This document shows, piece by piece, positions 6,841-46,333 of a stretch of 64,000 nucleotides of DNA. Positions within the stretch are counted from its first letter, which is position 1, and every line of letters starts with the position of its first letter. The notes beneath the pieces are model-generated. The model made no database searches. It had not been told where the DNA came from and saw nothing but the letters and a program-made list of their open reading frames with translations. The position numbers and the translations under genes are program-made. Origin of the DNA: Patescibacteria group bacterium (lineage in GTDB: Bacteria; Patescibacteriota; Patescibacteriia; JAHJFT01); assembly GCA_028710985.1 (NCBI GenBank), contig JAQTTB010000001.1, positions 523,014 through 587,013 of the forward strand, read 5' to 3'.

Positions 6841-6915
6841 CTGTAGGGGCAGGCCTTGTGCCTGCCCTGTTTTAATGCCGTCTAAAATAGGCGACCGCAA
6901 GGGTCGCCCCTACAG
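6841..6915. terminator. compound nested-hairpin element downstream of thrS (REP-like, GTAGGGGC family)
   Basis: Outer arms CTGTAGGGGC/GCCCCTACAG enclose two inner hairpins (GGCAGGCCTTGTGCCTGCC and GGCGACCGCAAGGGTCGCC). Confidence 0.5.
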
Positions 6916-25731: not shown

Positions 25732-26583
25732 TTATTTTCCCCACCCAATTACTCTCACCCGTCCGCACATATCGTCATACGGTTTAATCCGGTCGCGCGG
25801 GCCGATAAATTTGATTATTTTTTTGCCCTGCTCGGGATCAATTTCGAAATATGACTGCATGGAGTTGAGATTTGGCAAAATTTTCCGAATCTCGTTGATT
25901 AGCCGTCCGTAATATTTAAGTCCGTCTTTGCCGCCGTCAAGCGCGGCGCGCGGCTCGTATTTTTTCACATCCGCGGGGCACTCGCGCCACACCGCGGTCG
26001 GAAGATAGGGGAGATTGGCCACGATCAAAATATTGGGATTCTTTTTCCAGAATTCAATCGGCAAAGCCTTGAGCAAATCGGATTTTATAAAATCAATCTT
26101 TGCGCCAAGTTTTTTCGCGTTTTGTCGCGCGGTCTTAAGCGCGGCCGCCGAATTATCAATCGCAATGACTTTTACGCGCGGCTTGTTTTTGGCAATCGCA
26201 ATGGCAAGCGCGCCCGAGCCGGTACCTACATCGATTACGGCTGCGCGCGGATGTTTATTCAAATACTTCAACGCCAGGCTCACAAGCATTTCGCTTTCCG
26301 GCCGTGGAATAAGAACCTTTTTATTCACGCCGATCTTGAGTTTGTAAAAATATTTTATGCCCGTGAGATAGGCGACTGGCTCATGCCTGGTGCGGCGCCG
26401 AATTAACTTGGTAAATCGCGCCAGCTCCGGTGCTCGCAATTCTCTGTCCCGGTGCGCGAACAAAAAAACCCGGTCGCGTCCGAGCGCGTGCGCCAATAGA
26501 ATTTCGGCATCGAGATCTGGTGAATCAATATGATTCTGTTGTAAAATTTTCATTGCCCTGGAAAGGGCTTGGGTGATGGTCAT
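25732..26583 (-). CDS. prmC: release-factor glutamine methyltransferase PrmC/HemK (with C-terminal extension)
   Basis: SAM-binding VIDVGTGSGA and NLPY (NPPY-type) motifs. Confidence 0.9.
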   Translation of the reverse strand: MTITQALSRAMKILQQNHIDSPDLDAEILLAHALGRDRVFLFAHRDRELRAPELARFTKLIRRRTRHEPVAYLTGIKYFYKLKIGVNKKVLIPRPESEMLVSLALKYLNKHPRAAVIDVGTGSGALAIAIAKNKPRVKVIAIDNSAAALKTARQNAKKLGAKIDFIKSDLLKALPIEFWKKNPNILIVANLPYLPTAVWRECPADVKKYEPRAALDGGKDGLKYYGRLINEIRKILPNLNSMQSYFEIDPEQGKKIIKFIGPRDRIKPYDDMCGRVRVIGWGK

Positions 26584-26617
26584 ATCGTTATCATATCATG
26601 TTTATTGCATCATTCGG

Positions 26618-26645
26618 TAGGGGCGTATTGCAATACGCCCCTACA
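26618..26645. repeat. REP-like perfect palindrome GTAGGGGCGTATTGCAATACGCCCCTAC
   Basis: 28-nt perfect inverted repeat. Member of the GTAGGGGCG...CGCCCCTAC family. Confidence 0.7.
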
Positions 26646-26776
26646 AGACGACCGCGCATTGACAACCCGGCGCGATTTTGGTACAAATCAATATCCCGCC
26701 GGAATATTTCCGGCCGGAAAACCATGGGTAAGGCTGGCGTCGCAATGCGGCGTTGGTAGGCCCAAGGAGGAAAGAG

Positions 26777-27388
26777 ATGTCCGAAAAGAAAATGATGAGT
26801 CCGAGGCAACTTCGCGAGCTCATGGCCGTGGTCAGCCGGCACCTGTCTATTCATCTGCCGGCCAAGGTGGCGCAGAGCGTGATCGACAAGCCCGGCGATT
26901 TGGAGTTTGAGCTCTGCGAGCTCTTCTGGCGCATCGCCGAAGCGAACGAGAAGGCAAGAAGGGCGGTGGAAGCGAAGCACATCATCGACTGCGACGCCGA
27001 CCCCTATCTGCTCGGCCTCTTCACCGTGGAAGAGCACCGGAGAAGCGGTCAGTTGGAGTGGGACCCGGACAAGGTCGTTCTTTACCTTTCCGATTTGCAG
27101 AGGGGTCGTAGTGTTGTCCAGGGCCACGCGCTCCGCAAGGAACTCCAAAATCAGTCGGTTCTGAACGCCTGCGTCCTGGATTACCTGCTCGTTCATCCAA
27201 ACCTCATTCCCATCATGTGGATGAGGATGCGGGTCTACTTCTGGGGTACGATTTATTGCGATCGAGAAGGTGACCTCTGCGTTCGCGGCCTCTTCTGGGA
27301 AGACGAAAAAGGGTGGTTCTGGCGCTACAAGCATCTTTCGCACGATTTCTACCGCGACGACACCGCGGCGGTTTCTGCAAGCGTCTAG
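26777..27388 (+). CDS. hypothetical Trp-rich protein
   Basis: 203-aa ORF (MSEKKMMSPRQL...) with a strong GGAGGAAAGAG SD. Bracketed by REP palindromes and a CCCGTTTGCATTAAATTGCAACGGG plus T-run terminator. Confidence 0.45.
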   Translation: MSEKKMMSPRQLRELMAVVSRHLSIHLPAKVAQSVIDKPGDLEFELCELFWRIAEANEKARRAVEAKHIIDCDADPYLLGLFTVEEHRRSGQLEWDPDKVVLYLSDLQRGRSVVQGHALRKELQNQSVLNACVLDYLLVHPNLIPIMWMRMRVYFWGTIYCDREGDLCVRGLFWEDEKGWFWRYKHLSHDFYRDDTAAVSASV

Positions 27389-27621
27389 TAGCGGCGCATT
27401 GCAATACGCTGCTACGCGCCGACCCCCTGACCCGTTTGCATTAAATTGCAACGGGTCTTTTTTATTTAAATGCGAGTAGGGGCGGACCCCTGCGTCCGCC
27501 CTGTTCGTCGGGCGTCCGCCCCTACCATTTGTCGTCACCAACAAACGGCCGGTCGTCGATTTTCACCGCGTAGGGGCGAACGGCCGTTCGCCCCTACCGT
27601 TGATCCGTAATACGCCCCTAC
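27388..27621. repeat. cluster of four GTAGGGGCG-family palindromes plus a half-site
   Basis: Palindromes at 27388-27415 (GTAGCGGCGCATTGCAATACGCTGCTAC), 27476-27526 (GTAGGGGCGGAC...GTCCGCCCCTAC) and 27570-27597 (GTAGGGGCGAACGGCCGTTCGCCCCTAC), plus the half-site AATACGCCCCTAC at 27609-27621. Confidence 0.7.
27429..27467 (+). terminator. intrinsic terminator of the 26777 gene
   Basis: GACCCGTTTGCATTAAATTGCAACGGGTC followed by TTTTTTATTT. Confidence 0.6.
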
Positions 27622-27645
27622 CGGCGCAACCCCAATTCATTCCAT

Positions 27646-27673
27646 TTGATTTTAGGGGGAGGTATGATACAAT
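27646..27673 (+). promoter_or_regulatory. putative promoter of paralog A
   Basis: TTGATT, 16-nt spacer, TACAAT. Confidence 0.35.
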
Positions 27674-27701
27674 AATATCAATTTAAAATTAAATTAAAAT
27701 T

Positions 27702-28421
27702 ATGGACAAAATCAACCCATCCATGCCCGGCGAGGCAAAAAATATGTCCGCGGTCTGGATAATCGTCGCCATCGTAATCGTCGCCGTCGCGCTCGGCGGA
27801 TTAATGTATTATTTTCAAACCCTGTCGCAAGAAAAATTCGTTGCGCAGGAACAGGCGATTAATGATTTGCGCGAAGAACTTGGTCAGCCGACGGTCGTGG
27901 CTGAGGAAGGGGTGGAAGAGGAAGGTTCGGCCGAGGAAGAATATCTTACCTTTGAATCCGAACCAGTTTCTGTTTTACCCGAGATATTCTCGTTTGAATA
28001 TGCCAAAGGTTGGCATATTTATCATGAATATGATCATGGATGGGGCGAGGAAAAAGAAATTAGCAAAATATTAGTTTCGCCTGACCCGCTTCAGATTGCG
28101 CTTGACGCCGAATATTTACCTCAAGTTTATATTCTTGTCGATTTTGACTCCGTGGATACTCTTGATGAGTTCGTCGATCGGAAGTATGGAGATTCGGTGG
28201 AAACGAGTGAGGACGTAATAATTGCCAACTATCCCGGAAAAAAGATACACGTTGTAGATGACAAGATCAGCGGAGAAGATATTGAGGTTTATGCCTTCGT
28301 ATCCCCCAATGCCGCGTATTCTATTTATATTTATTATCCCGGCATAAAACAAGCAAGCATTGACCTCCCGGCAGAATATCAGCGCATCATTGATTCATTC
28401 AAGATTGAGTCAGGCAGTTAA
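27702..28421 (+). CDS. paralog A: N-terminally membrane-anchored secreted protein with acidic linker
   Basis: MDKINPSMPGEAKNMSAVWIIVAIVIVAVALGG signal-anchor. First ~55 aa are ~90% identical to paralog B and the C-terminal domain is unrelated. GGGGGAGG SD. Confidence 0.6.
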   Translation: MDKINPSMPGEAKNMSAVWIIVAIVIVAVALGGLMYYFQTLSQEKFVAQEQAINDLREELGQPTVVAEEGVEEEGSAEEEYLTFESEPVSVLPEIFSFEYAKGWHIYHEYDHGWGEEKEISKILVSPDPLQIALDAEYLPQVYILVDFDSVDTLDEFVDRKYGDSVETSEDVIIANYPGKKIHVVDDKISGEDIEVYAFVSPNAAYSIYIYYPGIKQASIDLPAEYQRIIDSFKIESGS

Positions 28422-28475
28422 TCGCACGATTCAAAAAAGGCCGCGCGTTTATTGCCGGCCTTTTTGAATATACGC

Positions 28476-28545
28476 GCAGGGGCGTATTGTCGCGTAGGGG
28501 CGAACGGCCGTTCGCCCCTACCGTTGATCCGCAATACGCCCCTAC
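28476..28545. repeat. second copy of the GTAGGGGCG palindrome block
   Basis: GCAGGGGCGTATTG half-site, GTAGGGGCGAACGGCCGTTCGCCCCTAC (28494-28521) and the AATACGCCCCTAC half-site. The ~95-nt block 28487-28581 is near-identical to 27563-27657. Confidence 0.7.
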
Positions 28546-28570
28546 CGGCGCAACCCCAATTCATTCCATT

Positions 28571-28600
28571 TGATTTTATCCGGGGGGGGGGTGGTATAAT
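28571..28600 (+). promoter_or_regulatory. promoter of paralog B with a G10 homopolymer in the spacer (candidate phase-variable promoter)
   Basis: TTGATT (28571-28576); the spacer contains G10 (28582-28591); extended -10 TGGTATAAT. Spacer is 18 nt with G10 and would be 17 nt with G9. Confidence 0.45.
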
Positions 28601-28630
28601 GCAATCAATAATTAAATCATTAAAATACAT

Positions 28631-29233
28631 ATGGACAAACTAAATGCATCCATGCCCGGCGTGGCAAAAAATATGTCCGCGGTCTGGATTATCGTCGCTA
28701 TCATCATCGTTGCCGCAATTCTCGGCGGAATGATGTATTATTTTCAAACCCTGTCGCAAGAAAAATTCGTTGCGCAGGAAGAGGCGATTGAGGCTCTACG
28801 CGCCGAGTTAAGCGAACCGGCCGCTTCAACTGCGGTAGAAGAAGAGGAGGCGGTTGCGGGAGATCAGGCCAAAGTCGAAGCAATTGATGAGCTTCAATAT
28901 GAAAACGATTATTATGGATTCAGCCTGTCATTCCCAGAGACATGGAGGGGCTATTCCGTTTATCATGAAGCCAATTCAATACATTTTGGTTTCGCGGCGG
29001 AGAAAGATCTCATGGCGATAGAAGTGATGGATTTGGAGGATTGGAAGATAATGAAAAAAGAATTGGATCTTCCGGGCCATGAAGCCGATGCGCTCTATAG
29101 CGCAGCCTACAGGGGCGAGAATGATAATTTCGCATTCTTTGGATGGGCGGCCCAAGACACGGTAAACGATGAGTTTATTCTTTCCAGAAGGATGGAAGTA
29201 GGGTCAATAATTAAAACGTTTAAAGCGAAATAG
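28631..29233 (+). CDS. paralog B: N-terminally membrane-anchored secreted protein
   Basis: MDKLNASMPGVAKNMSAVWIIVAIIIVAAILGG. Shared leader and N-terminus with paralog A; distinct C-terminal domain. Confidence 0.6.
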   Translation: MDKLNASMPGVAKNMSAVWIIVAIIIVAAILGGMMYYFQTLSQEKFVAQEEAIEALRAELSEPAASTAVEEEEAVAGDQAKVEAIDELQYENDYYGFSLSFPETWRGYSVYHEANSIHFGFAAEKDLMAIEVMDLEDWKIMKKELDLPGHEADALYSAAYRGENDNFAFFGWAAQDTVNDEFILSRRMEVGSIIKTFKAK

Positions 29234-29239
29234 TTAAAT

Positions 29240-29290
29240 AAAAAATCGCCCCGACGTTCACTTCATTCAGTCGGGACGATTTTTATTTTC
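29240..29290. terminator. bidirectional terminator between paralog B and prfA
   Basis: ATCGCCCCGAC...GTCGGGACGAT hairpin flanked by A- and T-runs. Confidence 0.55.
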
Positions 29291-29310
29291 TCAGTTCCCG
29301 ATTCACCGAT

Positions 29311-30381
<1,071 letters not shown>

Positions 30382-30402
30382 AAAAATAAATAATGGATAT
30401 CC

Positions 30403-30544
30403 GCTCGTCGTCATTCCGAGCGAAGCCCCGATCGCAATCGGGGCAAAGCCGAGGAATCCCTTTTCTTCAATCCAGCCAGTCTGATTAAAGAGATTCCTCC
30501 GCTCATCCCCCGCGTTGCGGGGGACTCGGTCGGAATGACGAGCG
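30403..30544 (-). ncRNA. structured 5' leader of prfA with a 19-bp long-range stem enclosing GC hairpins (candidate regulatory RNA or MITE-like insert)
   Basis: CGCTCGTCGTCATTCCGAG (30403-30421) pairs with CTCGGTCGGAATGACGAGCG (30525-30544). Inner hairpins GCCCCGATCGCAATCGGGGC and CCCCCGCGTTGCGGGGG. Confidence 0.35.
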
Positions 30545-30556
30545 TTGTATTTAAAA

Positions 30557-30633: not shown

Positions 30634-30915
30634 CTATTTCTTGGCGGATTTTTTGGCAGTGGCGCGCTTGGCGCGTTTTGCTTTTTTGCCCTGTCGCGCG
30701 GCCGCGCTCGCGGTCTTTGCCTTAACCTTGGCCTGGAATTTTTCCACGCGGCGGGCGGTGTCCACGAGTTTCTGTTTGCCGGTATAAAAAGGATGGCACG
30801 CCGAACAAAGCTCAACATTGATTTCCGGCACGGTCGCGCCGGTTGTAAAGCTGTTGCCGCACGCGCAGGTCACGCGCGCATTCGGATAATAAGTTGGATG
30901 AATATCTTTTTTCAT
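30634..30915 (-). CDS. rpmE: 50S ribosomal protein L31 with Lys-rich C-terminal tail
   Basis: [23 protein letters not shown]...[10 protein letters not shown] zinc-ribbon L31 signature. Confidence 0.9.
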
Positions 30916-31011: not shown

Positions 31012-31569
31012 CTAGGGAATAAGGGAGAGCAGCTTGAGCCACTCGGGCTTGATGGTGTCCGCGCCGGTGGGAAACTTGCCGGAGCGGATATTTCCGAGCG
31101 CCTGCTCAAGGCGCGACTTCGTGTTCTCCTCGCTCGCAAGCGTGTGCGTGCTCGGCAGTTTCTTTTTGAAGCCCATGAATTCCTCGTAGGCGGCATATAC
31201 CACGAACTTCGCGCCCTCGGGCTTGGCAACCGGGCTCGGTTCGCTGATCGTCATGCGCACGTAGCCGTACTGGTTATCATCAATGGCCTCGGAATCCATC
31301 CAGTGGCCGCTCCAGAACGGGCCGTCGCCTTCGCGCCGCAGGTAGTAGATGTAGAAATGCGACGATGAGTATATTTTGAAGAAAGCTATGAGGTCGTCTT
31401 CAATGAGCCCCTGGATGACCGAGTCCCCGTAGCGGTCTTTCAGGCCGCCGACGAAATATTTGTCCTCCGTATCGACGTAGAGCTGGCCCGCGAAGTCGAC
31501 GGGCGGATATACTCCTCCGTCATAATTGGCTTCGACGAACTTGCCGCTGACCAAACTTATTTTCAGCAT
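31012..31569 (-). CDS. hypothetical protein
   Basis: Start set at MLKISLVSGKF, preceded by an AGGAGG SD. Confidence 0.5.
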   Translation of the reverse strand: MLKISLVSGKFVEANYDGGVYPPVDFAGQLYVDTEDKYFVGGLKDRYGDSVIQGLIEDDLIAFFKIYSSSHFYIYYLRREGDGPFWSGHWMDSEAIDDNQYGYVRMTISEPSPVAKPEGAKFVVYAAYEEFMGFKKKLPSTHTLASEENTKSRLEQALGNIRSGKFPTGADTIKPEWLKLLSLIP

Positions 31570-31658
31570 GTTTTCCTCCTCGCTGAACAAAGAATATAAT
31601 GCATGAGGCGCGGTGTCAAGCAATTGATTTTTGCCGCGTTTAGTATAAAATACTCAAC

Positions 31659-44554: not shown

Positions 44555-45460
44555 TTAAATACCGAGTTTTCTTAATGCCCTCAGTCCGTTAAAGCGGTCG
44601 ACGAGCTTGGTTTCAGTGCGGTTGTGCGGAGCACAGTATTCGGTCGCCCCCCAGAAAGCGCCCATCATGCCAGCGGCCTGGGCAAAATTTGCACGGCCGC
44701 GTTTGACCGAGTACAGGCGGCCGCGTATCTTGCGCAGATAGTGCCGCGGGATAAAGATGCGGCTGGTCTTATCCATGGCAATGCCGTTGATGACCACCGG
44801 AGCCTTTTGGATGTCGCGGACAATGGATTTCTTATGGTTGATCTGGAATCCAGCCGCGAGAATGATGCGCCGTATCATCTGCCGCTTTCTTTTGCCGATC
44901 GGTTCAGTCGCCGAAAAGGTCAGGTCGTCGAGATAGCGCGTATAGATGATGCCGTGGCGCCGGCAGAATTCGCCGAGCGGCCGGTCAAGAAGTTCGCCGG
45001 CATAGCGGTTGGCAAGATCCGGCGAAGCCGGCGCGCCGGTTGCGAGCCCACCCTCGTCTGCTATGCAGTACTTATTAAGAAAGGCGAGAAGCCCTGTCTC
45101 GTCCTCCATCAGCCGTTCGTCAAGATTCATGAGTATCCCGGCGAGCCGCTCGGCGTCCACGCTCGGATAGAAATTGTGGATGTCGGTGAGGTAGAAAAAG
45201 CGGTTGCCGCGGTGCCGGAGCACATTTTTCTTGGGGGATGAGCCGCGCATCGCGCCGGTGGCGTGCGGCAGGGGATGGTGCTCGAGAAGGTGGCGCCGCA
45301 AGTAAAAGATTAGCCCGCGGTGGACCTGGCGCATCGCGTTATTTGGCGCGTAGAGCGTGCGCATTTTTACGGTCTTCGCTACCGGATTTACGTCTCTGTA
45401 GGTAAATTTGTTGAACCCCGGAGTCCCATCTATGTTTTTCAGAATTATATCAAAGAGCAT
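44555..45460 (-). CDS. stand-alone reverse transcriptase, retron- or defence-RT-like (301 aa, no maturase or endonuclease domain)
   Basis: RT motifs: HATGAMRGSSPKKNVLRH plus FFYLTDIHNFYPSVD (motifs 1-2), GLATGAPASPDLANRY (motif 4, the SP type), YTRYLDDLTFS (YxDD), AAGFQINHKKS (motif 7). AAGGAGG SD 5 nt before the ATG at 45460. TTGCAT, 17-nt spacer, TAAAAT promoter at about 45490-45520 on the minus strand. Confidence 0.8.
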   Translation of the reverse strand: MLFDIILKNIDGTPGFNKFTYRDVNPVAKTVKMRTLYAPNNAMRQVHRGLIFYLRRHLLEHHPLPHATGAMRGSSPKKNVLRHRGNRFFYLTDIHNFYPSVDAERLAGILMNLDERLMEDETGLLAFLNKYCIADEGGLATGAPASPDLANRYAGELLDRPLGEFCRRHGIIYTRYLDDLTFSATEPIGKRKRQMIRRIILAAGFQINHKKSIVRDIQKAPVVINGIAMDKTSRIFIPRHYLRKIRGRLYSVKRGRANFAQAAGMMGAFWGATEYCAPHNRTETKLVDRFNGLRALRKLGI

Positions 45461-45535
45461 GGCGCCCTCCTTATAGATTTTTGTGTAGGTTGATTTTAGT
45501 ACAGCGCCGAATAAAATGCAAGTAAATTTTTTTGG

Positions 45536-45916
45536 TATAAAAAACGCATCAAACCAGGGGTTTGACGCGAAGGGAGAAACCCGATTTTCATCGGGCAGTG
45601 AATTCACAGCGGCGGGTTGGCCAAGTTCGTTGCCCGATTCTGGGTTCTGCGGACAACGATCAAGAGAACAGACTTTGCCGCTGAGGCTTCGATGCAGGGC
45701 CGAAACGGCAGCGCCGAGGCCGCAGGCCGGGGCGCCCTCTGTGCCGAAAGAAGAAGAGAAGGGGCGGATACTATGGCAATTTCCGTTTCCGGAAATCCCG
45801 CTGGCGCACCTTGATGCGCCAACCCTCGTGGGCAAGAGCACTTTGGCGTCCAGCCAGAACCAGGAAACCGTCTTGGCCAACCCGGACTGGACTTGGCTTT
45901 ATCCTATCATAAACAA
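45536..45916 (-). ncRNA. structured ncRNA unit 1 upstream of the RT (RT-associated template/scaffold RNA candidate)
   Basis: No credible ORF or SD. Ends on the minus strand in GCGTCAAACCCCTGGTTTGATGCG plus a U-run. Shares conserved hairpins with unit 2. Confidence 0.4.
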
Positions 45917-46297
45917 AAAAACGCATCAAACCAGGGGGTTTGATGCGAAGAGAGAGAGTCCCGACTCGGTCGGGAAGAAAGTGCAGCGGCGGGTTTGAGT
46001 CATTGTCCGCAAGGGACTTTCCGGGCATGGGAGCTTGCCGCTGAAGATACCCGTGGCGTCCGAGGGCACTGAACAACGGGCCGAATCAGCCACTGCGGCC
46101 GCTGATCCGCCTCATGCAGATACCAACGGGAGCGCTTCGGGTTGCCCAGGGGCGATGGGGTACTGTTCAAAGCCCTGGTTTAACCCTTTGGCGCACCTGA
46201 AATGCGCCAAGACGATGAGCACCGAGGATCTCACCCGGAATGAACTAGCTCAAACCCAGCCAAGGTGGCTATGAAGAGGGTAGCATAAAATTCAAAA
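45917..46297 (-). ncRNA. structured ncRNA unit 2 (diverged tandem copy of unit 1)
   Basis: Ends in GCATCAAACCCCCTGGTTTGATGC plus U7. Same hairpin set as unit 1 with compensatory changes. Confidence 0.4.
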
Positions 46298-46333
46298 TAA
46301 AAAAAGAACGGCCGCGATATCGTGGGCCGTTCT
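46289..46333. repeat. right 44-bp direct repeat / terminator hairpin flanking the RT module
   Basis: AAAATAAAAAAAGAACGGCCGCGATATCGTGGGCCGTTCTTTTTT. Confidence 0.7.

Follow-up and report, generated by a model that had tools for sequence, protein, structure and literature searches.

A small accessory island between prfA and prmC in a Patescibacteria genome, with a probably stranded retroelement target gene, orphan duplicates and REP-like palindromes

Results

The prfA-prmC gap and its counterpart in relatives

We analyzed a 64-kb window (the whole stretch of DNA examined here) of a 744-kb contig (744,538 bp) from a metagenome-assembled genome of Patescibacteria (candidate phyla radiation, CPR), in which prfA and prmC (hemK), two genes whose adjacency is widespread in bacteria, stand 2727 nt apart. 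We explain the gap, with a probability that we put at roughly 70%, as an accessory island that carries a stranded target gene of a diversity-generating retroelement (DGR), two orphan duplicates and palindromes resembling repetitive extragenic palindromic (REP) elements. A first-pass annotation had described the pair as kept apart by opposite-strand DNA, and this holds: both core genes are intact and in their usual order on the minus strand, within the rpmE-prfA-prmC cluster that the relatives keep, while the gap holds three monocistronic plus-strand genes, open reading frames (ORFs) 1 to 3, a terminator and a dense palindrome cluster. The NCBI locus tags of the three proteins are consecutive on one contig. 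The genes of the region and the terminator at its prfA end are as follows.

25732-26583, minus strand: prmC (release-factor glutamine methyltransferase), 283 aa, intact; Pfam PrmC_N (4e-23) and MTS
26777-27388, plus strand: ORF1 (PHW53_02645), 203 aa with 7 Trp, orphan member of a Patescibacteria DGR target-protein family
27702-28421, plus strand: ORF2 (PHW53_02650), 239 aa, orphan with an N-terminal membrane anchor
28631-29233, plus strand: ORF3 (PHW53_02655), 200 aa, its N-terminal ~60 aa paralogous to ORF2, its C-terminal part different
29241-29284, both strands: predicted bidirectional terminator common to ORF3 (plus) and prfA (minus); folds with z -5.8 and -6.1
29311-30381, minus strand: prfA (peptide chain release factor 1), 356 aa, intact; Pfam PCRF (2e-67) and RF-1 (4e-42)
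30634-30915, minus strand: rpmE, by Pfam

A long antisense ORF at 26591-27544 (minus strand) was rejected as spurious because the conserved protein family sits on plus-strand ORF1.

The relatives used for comparison were found through the closest PrmC homologues (49-58% identity), which were traced to their contigs; the five contigs represent three independent lineages (L091/92, L093/94 and L095). A scan with exact 8-residue word patterns of PrfA matched only distant phyla (at most 58% identity) and was of no use for synteny. All five contigs share the flanking gene order of the window over 20 kb (PPIase, metK, queA; rpmE, prfA, prmC; DUF3048, L25, a 110-aa ORF, FtsW/RodA, ..., gyrB), with identities to the window of 82-84% for GyrB, 78-81% for MetK, 71-74% for PrfA and 49-55% for PrmC (287 aa in the relatives). 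The spacer from the prfA stop to the prmC start is 15-39 nt in all five contigs, and prfA is thus directly followed by prmC in the three relatives and not in the window. The gene tables of these contigs hold no homologue of ORF1, ORF2 or ORF3, and GTAGGGGCG, the motif that recurs in the island palindromes, has no site in 84 kb of the relatives' syntenic DNA. Composition points the same way: the GC content at third codon positions (GC3) of ORF1 (0.745) lies above the range of 14 core genes of the window (0.527-0.656), and those of ORF2 (0.458) and ORF3 (0.493) lie below it. These opposite deviations hint at separate origins of ORF1 and of ORF2/ORF3. The first-pass annotation had called the region accessory DNA dropped into a core gene pair and had named the synteny comparison beforehand as the test that could overturn this; the relatives lack intervening genes at that place, and both the short spacers and the GC3 values support its claim. 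The comparison supports, as the parsimonious reading, a lineage-specific accessory island gained in the window's lineage, because ancestral loss would need repeated precise deletions.

Alternatively, the arrangement could be ancestral, the three relatives having deleted the intervening genes, and the only moderate closeness of these relatives leaves some room for such a history. We regard it as extremely improbable. The relatives would have had to make a precise deletion three times independently, or once in a common ancestor that the window lineage does not share, and each deletion would have to restore a 15-39 nt spacer carrying the prmC -10 element described below. In addition, ORF2 and ORF3 were found nowhere else among 5.8 billion proteins, none of the ~90 ORF1-family loci adjoins prfA or prmC, and adjacency of the two core genes is the widespread state.

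The junctions could also be an assembly artefact, a chimeric join driven by repeats, with the island not truly located between prfA and prmC. Logan short-read unitigs (SRR22315509) do break exactly at the palindromes P1 and P4 (listed below), and the repeats therefore branch the assembly graph. However, the repeats are only 28-88 nt long, below read length; unitig L002, on the prmC side, ends at P1 and unitig L001, with ORF1, starts there, which fits the given order; the locus tags run consecutively on the 744-kb contig; and both the bidirectional terminator and the prmC promoter are consistent with the junctions. We give an artefact hardly any credence. Exact-protein look-ups of ORF1 and PrmC gave only short Logan unitigs, and PrfA was not on record, probably owing to a different start call.

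The prmC promoter and the cost of the split

26590-26598, minus strand: putative extended -10 element of prmC, TGATATGAT, 6 nt upstream of the ATG, its function read from the sequence

The window reads TGATATGAT-AACGAT-ATG upstream of prmC (26598-26581, minus strand), and the relatives carry TGGTATAAT, TGATACAAT or TGCTATAAT at the same position, their short prfA-prmC spacers being TGGTATAAT-AAAGGC-ATG, TGATACAAT-AGGGGC-ATG or CTGCTATAAT-GGAGGC-ATG. The spacer of the relatives is itself an extended -10 element (TGnTATAAT, 6 nt, ATG), and the window has kept it. It appears, therefore, that prmC had its own promoter before the insertion and that the island landed between the prfA stop and this promoter. 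Since prmC kept its putative promoter, the split would be tolerated and probably costs little. The earlier statement that the insertion splits the operon is correct in that the genes are separated, but it overstates the consequence, as prmC already has its own extended -10 element in the relatives as well as in the window. Unlike in the adjacent pair found elsewhere, prmC here must rely on this predicted promoter, and transcription of prfA would now end at the predicted terminator at 29241-29284.

ORF1 belongs to a family of DGR target proteins

26659-26687, plus strand: promoter-like site of ORF1 (TTGACA, 17 nt, TACAAA), a consensus match from a relaxed consensus scan
27252-27385, plus strand: segment of ORF1 equivalent to the variable repeat (VR) of its family, apparently decayed, ending in the conserved ...AAV.A. 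tail of the family (codon alignment)
27429-27463, plus strand: predicted intrinsic terminator of ORF1 (GACCCGTT.GCA...TGCAACGGGTC then T6), hairpin at 27429-27457; z -3.8 for the 90-nt segment

The most likely start of ORF1 is the ATG at 26777 and not the TTG at 26753, with the Shine-Dalgarno sequence AAGGAGG at 26764-26770. It had been noted as a Trp-rich hypothetical gene with its own Shine-Dalgarno sequence and terminator; its seven Trp residues, AAGGAGG and the predicted terminator agree with this, but the gene is not anonymous, being a member of a large Patescibacteria family of DGR target proteins. It has no Pfam domain and 162 homologues of ~190 aa, all from Patescibacteria where the source is named, and the homology is mostly confined to the C-terminal two-thirds (40-58% identical to DGR targets), the N-termini being variable. 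Two long contigs, L086 and L088, carry downstream of the homologue bAvd on the opposite strand and an RVT_1 reverse transcriptase (RT) on the plus strand. The last ~130 nt of two adjacent family genes in L086 match one intergenic copy, the template repeat (TR), and L088 carries two complete DGR cassettes. TR and VR on these contigs differ almost only where the TR has adenine, and such adenine-restricted mismatch is the hallmark of DGRs. A metagenome scan with the ORF1-family alignment gave 80 more loci, and 57 family genes could be evaluated. A TR lies ~480 nt downstream in 32 of the 57, with 10-24 mismatches, nearly all of them at adenines of the TR (e.g. 24/24, 21/21 and 18/18), and these TR-linked genes are usually followed by Avd (minus) and RT (plus); the other 25 (about 44%) lack a TR despite at least 700 nt of downstream sequence. 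ORF1 aligns with the family through the VR.

Targets without recognizable domains have been reported for the 'clade 2' DGRs of CPR bacteria (Roux et al. 2021, PMC8144416), and ORF1 is similar to them in being small and without a signal peptide, a transmembrane segment or a Pfam domain. The predicted model consists of N-terminal helices and a putative C-type-lectin-like domain at the C-terminus, on which the variable residues would lie; the structural prototypes of DGR targets are Mtd (1YU0) and TvpA (2Y3C). Compared with the PDB, the full-length model gave matches from the N-terminal helices only, and the comparison was repeated with the C-terminal domain alone; a sequence-profile search of the PDB found nothing. 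ORF1 was also considered as a RAYT, a transposase or a defence protein and rejected as each of these, having no match in Pfam, PADLOC, NCBIfam or PHROGs.

Some loci of the family have an unusual arrangement. Three of them (L115, L146 and L174) keep a TR and show no Avd or RT within several kb; the mismatches fall at TR adenines in 18/24 cases in L115 and 17/27 in L146, many thus being at non-adenine positions, and in a clean 12/12 in L174. The RT of L147 is located ~4 kb upstream of the target, and the ~10.4-kb locus yielded no TR. All four resemble transitional stages in the decay of a DGR, or else remote arrangements.

ORF1 is probably no longer diversified

A tblastn search of the 64-kb window with two family RTs and three Avds (from L086 and L088) gave no match, blastn-short found no second copy of the ORF1 3' end there, and a scan of the window for a TR with adenines as wildcards reached a best score of only 95/137, compared with 127/134 for the true TR in the positive control. 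We also compared the VR of ORF1 with 32 TRs and 77 other VRs of the family in a codon alignment. At scaffold residues, whose TR codons are free of adenine, ORF1 matches at 11 of 15 positions, while the TR-linked genes have a mean of 14.0 and a minimum of 12. Codons derived from AAY keep a pyrimidine as the third base in 8/10 cases in ORF1, compared with 10/10 in 30 of the 32 TR-linked genes. ORF1 also carries an in-frame insertion of one codon, which is seen in none of the 32 TR-linked genes and in 5 of the 25 TR-less ones. Among the scaffold changes are W to H and P to T, at sites where no family TR has an adenine; DGR mutagenesis cannot make them. These deviations are the marks that would be expected once retrohoming stops and ordinary mutation takes over, suggesting that ORF1 is probably a fossil or frozen target that is no longer diversified.

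It is also conceivable that ORF1 is an active remote target, with TR, Avd and RT elsewhere in the 744-kb genome and with the palindrome P2 serving as the retrohoming hairpin or cruciform. Remote DGR targets are known, and surveys limited to contigs miss them (PMC8144416), and some of the 25 family genes without a nearby TR have a perfect scaffold (15/15). Moreover, the prototype BPP-1 requires a hairpin directly downstream of the VR, of which the stem structure matters while the stem sequence can vary (PMC3240598), and P2 (27388-27415) begins at the last base of the ORF1 stop codon. However, it takes a TR to define an IMH, and P2 belongs to a general palindrome family: members of this family also lie upstream of ORF1, ORF2 and ORF3, and P2 is hence not specific to the VR, whereas other family members normally carry short hairpins of another kind (TCCTTnGGA type) after the stop codon, so that the GTAGGGGCG-type palindromes are not a hallmark of the ORF1 family. 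Together with the absence of a TR, an Avd or a DGR-type RT from the 64 kb, and with the scaffold changes, the wrong third base at 2 of 10 AAY codons and the extra codon, each of which is rare or absent in the 32 TR-linked genes, this makes an active remote target unlikely, and we favor the frozen one.

The window contains a single RT, which we rejected as the diversifier of ORF1 since it is dissimilar to the DGR RTs of the family and has no TR near it. This retron-type RT (~301 aa, 44555-45460, minus strand) matches Pfam RVT_1 (4e-10), PADLOC retron RT models (down to 4.5e-34) and the NCBIfam retron St85 family (1.9e-33, below its cut-off), and has the motifs NNAMRQVH, YLDD and VINGI. Upstream of it (region 44555-46300, minus strand) is ~840 nt of non-coding DNA with two tandem ~377-nt units, each ending in the hairpin CATCAAACCCC(C)TGGTTTGATGCG followed by T-runs; these are candidate msr/msd-like RNAs with no Rfam match. 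The retron-like element lies just downstream of rplJ-rplL.

ORF2 and ORF3 are orphan tandem duplicates

27567-27654, plus strand: 88-nt repeat, copy A, with P4 (27570-27597), a right half-site (27609-27623) and the -35 of ORF2; 99% identical to copy B
27646-27673, plus strand: promoter-like site of ORF2 (TTGATT, 16 nt, TGaTACAAT), its -35 inside copy A
28429-28469, plus strand: predicted terminator hairpin after ORF2, an inverted repeat; z -4.2
28491-28578, plus strand: 88-nt repeat, copy B, followed by TGgTATAAT at 28592-28600, which we read as the putative ORF3 promoter

The first ~60 residues of ORF2 and ORF3 are near-identical and include the hydrophobic anchor AVWIIVAI.IVA..LGG.MYYF, while BLASTP detects no similarity between the C-terminal parts, in line with the earlier description of two tandem paralogous membrane-anchored protein genes. 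At the nucleotide level, identity is 99% over the 88-nt segment upstream and 87% over the first 173 coding nt, beyond which the sequences differ; the two genes thus read as tandem duplicates. In both proteins the N-terminal anchor is followed by an acidic linker and then a ~130-aa domain, an architecture that suggests display outside the membrane. A phmmer search with ORF2 of 1.84 billion representatives gave three matches, namely ORF2 itself, ORF3 and a 34%-identical protein of 216 aa, and the search of 5.8 billion proteins with ORF3 found only ORF3 and ORF2. Neither protein matches Pfam (at curated cut-offs), PADLOC, NCBIfam or PHROGs, the only sub-threshold Pfam match being that of ORF2 to DUF6704 (E 0.0095, 16.5 bits vs a cut-off of 27). 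They are orphans, confined to this genome in our searches.

Each of the three island genes has a promoter-like site and a putative terminator hairpin, the hairpins being followed by T-runs and having z values of -3.8 to -6.1. Upstream of ORF3, a G-run of ~12 nt (28580-28591) lies between a -35-like TTGATT and TGgTATAAT, giving a spacer of 19 nt; its equivalent upstream of ORF2 is the shorter, interrupted stretch GGGGGAGG. The G-run is a possible slippage-prone tract that could tune the expression of ORF3.

Clustered and nested palindromes

26617-26644: P1, perfect 28-nt palindrome, GTAGGGGCGTATTG/CAATACGCCCCTAC; RNA fold -22 kcal/mol, z -6.4
27388-27415: P2, degenerate P1-type palindrome, GTAGCGGCGCATTGCAATACGCTGCTAC, 81% identical to P1; overlaps the ORF1 stop codon by one base
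27476-27525: P3, compound: arms of GTAGGGGCGGAC plus an inner hairpin; fold -35.6 kcal/mol, z -4.9
27570-27597: P4, perfect 28-nt palindrome, with a half-site at 27609-27623
28476-28545: nested palindrome, P5 (28494-28521, P4-type) at the centre of P1-type halves (28476-28489 and 28532-28545)

The motif GTAGGGGCG occurs in 11 exact copies in the 64 kb, compared with 0.26 expected and at most two in 100 shuffles, and ten of the 11 lie within 26617-28545. We count five full palindromes plus half-sites in the island, or about six elements, the number given by the first-pass annotation. All copies are extragenic, lying between accepted ORFs except for the one-base overlap of P2 with the ORF1 stop. 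P1 has the form GTAGGGGCG TATTG/CAATA CGCCCCTAC, and P4 and P5 have the form GTAGGGGCG AACGG/CCGTT CGCCCCTAC; the 9-nt arms are common to both, and although four of the five central positions differ on each side, both are still perfect palindromes. The nested palindrome folds with both stems formed (-50.8 kcal/mol, z -5.5). Upstream of ORF2, the outer palindrome is represented only by its right half, which follows the inner element, and therefore the breakpoint of the ORF2/ORF3 duplication would lie inside the outer palindrome. Because of the nesting, the leftover half-sites and the higher identity of the non-coding repeat (99%) than of the adjacent coding sequence (87%), we read the palindromes as copy-prone or mobile elements rather than simple operators. 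Logan unitigs L001 and L002 both end at P1, and the unitig breaks at palindromes are a hint of further copies in the sample. An Rfam scan of the whole window gave nothing at the gathering score.

The sole GTAGGGGC-type element of the window outside the island is a 71-nt compound palindrome at 6843-6913, just downstream of thrS, in which two inverted hairpin units stand between GTAG and CTAC (fold -41.6 kcal/mol, z -5.4).

Beyond this genome, the pattern GTAGGGGCG-N10-CGCCCCTAC occurs on at least 111 stretches of IMG/VR, compared with four and zero for two composition-matched control palindromes. These loci (L176-L286) lie on contigs of 49-73% GC, examples being L177:492-519, L189:2619-2646 and L212, which has four copies. 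The centres are perfectly self-complementary in 58 of the 94 viral instances examined and are very diverse (e.g. ATTCATGAAT, ACCGGCCGGT and AAAAATTTTT); TATTGCAATA, the centre of P1, occurs three times among the 94. This pattern points to a conserved hairpin element that spans unrelated genomes. We found no description of the palindrome in the searchable literature, where sequence searches gave only primers and unrelated matches, and the GTAG-type palindrome family is widely distributed and apparently undescribed.

The palindromes resemble GTAG-tagged REP elements, judging from their make-up. GTAG-REPs carry GTAG as a terminal tag, have a G+C-rich stem of 8-12 bp whose loop is minimal, and form sub-families in which stem changes compensate one another (Di Nocera et al. 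2013, PMC3733652), and the 28-nt P1, P4 and P5 have the corresponding structure (20-40 bp, G+C-rich stem-loop, terminal GTAG), while P0 and P3 are compound. Like GTAG-REPs, bacterial interspersed mosaic elements (BIMEs) and REPINs, they are extragenic, occur as singletons, dimers and clusters, and are repeated with flanking DNA. There are also differences. The tag here is base-paired at both ends (GTAG...CTAC), whereas REPs carry an unpaired tag at one end; only ~7 copies are visible in 64 kb, nearly all within 2 kb; no RAYT, with which some REPs are associated, was seen among the ~46 window ORFs scanned; and the same arms occur on many unrelated viral contigs, whereas GTAG-REP families are species-specific or shared among several species, with Patescibacteria unreported in that survey (PMC3733652). 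An integron cassette array, in which each ORF is followed by an attC site that forms an imperfect palindrome, was considered as well, given that small promoter-poor ORFs are separated by palindromic sites here too and that ORF1 is bracketed by two related palindromes. It was rejected: the ends (GTAGGGG) are unlike the attC core (GTTRRRY), each island gene has a promoter-like site and a terminator, and no integrase was found among the scanned ORFs.

Instead of being mobile REP-like elements, the palindromes could bind a dimeric regulator as its operators, or act as RNA hairpins, in either case co-regulating the three genes of the island. The strict conservation of the 9-bp arms with varying centres would suit an operator, as would the sites adjoining promoter-like elements of ORF1, ORF2, ORF3 and prmC. 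However, self-complementarity of the 10-bp spacer, for which a protein operator has no need, is kept in the two variants of the island and in the majority of the 94 viral examples; one of the palindromes sits inserted in the middle of another, with half-sites left over; P2 and P3 lie downstream of ORF1 and not at a promoter; and the same element is found downstream of thrS and on the many unrelated viral stretches. We consider this co-regulation quite improbable and retain the reading of copy-prone elements.

A bolder proposal seems just as doubtful to us: the palindromes would be a cross-phylum class of mobile hairpins that insert at hairpin apices and capture or shuttle adjacent genes, and ORF1 would be a cassette flanked by P1 and P2 that was carried from its retroelement into the core cluster. 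If true, P1 and P2 would bracket ORF1 much as REPs bracket a RAYT gene.

Neighbouring features

A tandem 8-mer repeat of ~3.5 copies (29288-29323; CGATTCAC on the plus strand, GGTGAATC on the coding strand) runs across the prfA stop codon. Slippage here could change the C-terminus of PrfA, which is 2-3 residues longer than in the relatives. Between rpmE and prfA, where the relatives have a gap of only ~90 nt, lies a highly structured 147-nt element (30402-30548; fold -82.6 kcal/mol, z -7.2) with the long terminal inverted repeats TCGTCATTCCGAGCGAAGCCCC and GGGGACTCGGTCGGAATGACGA. It has no Rfam match and looks like an insertion of the MITE kind (a miniature transposable element with inverted repeats) or an unknown RNA. 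A second lineage-specific gene, a 203-aa ORF with a GC3 of 0.76 (31012-31623, minus strand), stands between rpmE and queA, a gap that measures only ~40-290 nt in the three relatives. Pfam, PADLOC, NCBIfam and PHROGs gave no match to it, nor did tblastn in the three relatives.

Discussion

In the history that we propose, the island was acquired at the tiny spacer between the prfA stop and the extended -10 of prmC, probably in more than one step, and its three genes would be transcribed independently, facing away from the core genes. In the relatives of ORF1, an Avd/RT cassette rewrites the last ~120 nt from the TR, randomizing adenine-containing codons. Cut off from any such cassette, ORF1 would have begun to drift in its VR, and it is most likely a frozen ('fossil') ligand-binding protein. 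ORF2 and ORF3 are tandem duplicates of an orphan anchor-protein gene, which kept the promoter and the anchor in common while the outer domains diverged. The palindromes would be small elements, mobile or prone to copying, and may have provided the homology or the breakpoints by which the island was built and duplicated.

Several observations weigh against this explanation. The searches for a DGR covered 64 kb of the 744-kb contig, so a cassette could act from elsewhere, and the decay of the VR was measured against the family consensus, so the odd codons and the additional one could also be present in a TR specific to this lineage. No RAYT (Y1_Tnp), integrase or transposase was found by Pfam among ~46 ORFs of the window, a scan that left out eight ORFs beyond 53 kb. 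Lastly, the nearest relatives are not very close (PrmC 49-55% identical), which limits what can be said about the timing and the number of steps of the insertion.

The region is a small accessory island in a permissive intergenic site, made of known kinds of accessory DNA rather than a new system, and no current concept is changed by it. The covarying centres of the palindromes together with one nested insertion offer a tractable model for the spread of hairpin repeats. For the genomes of CPR bacteria, the island indicates that even streamlined ones can accept accessory DNA inside a core translation cluster, at a site that would be tolerated through the own promoter of prmC. For the life cycle of DGR targets, ORF1 provides what is probably a tangible example of a target gene that was left without its retroelement and has begun to decay, and about 44% of the evaluable family members likewise lack a nearby template.

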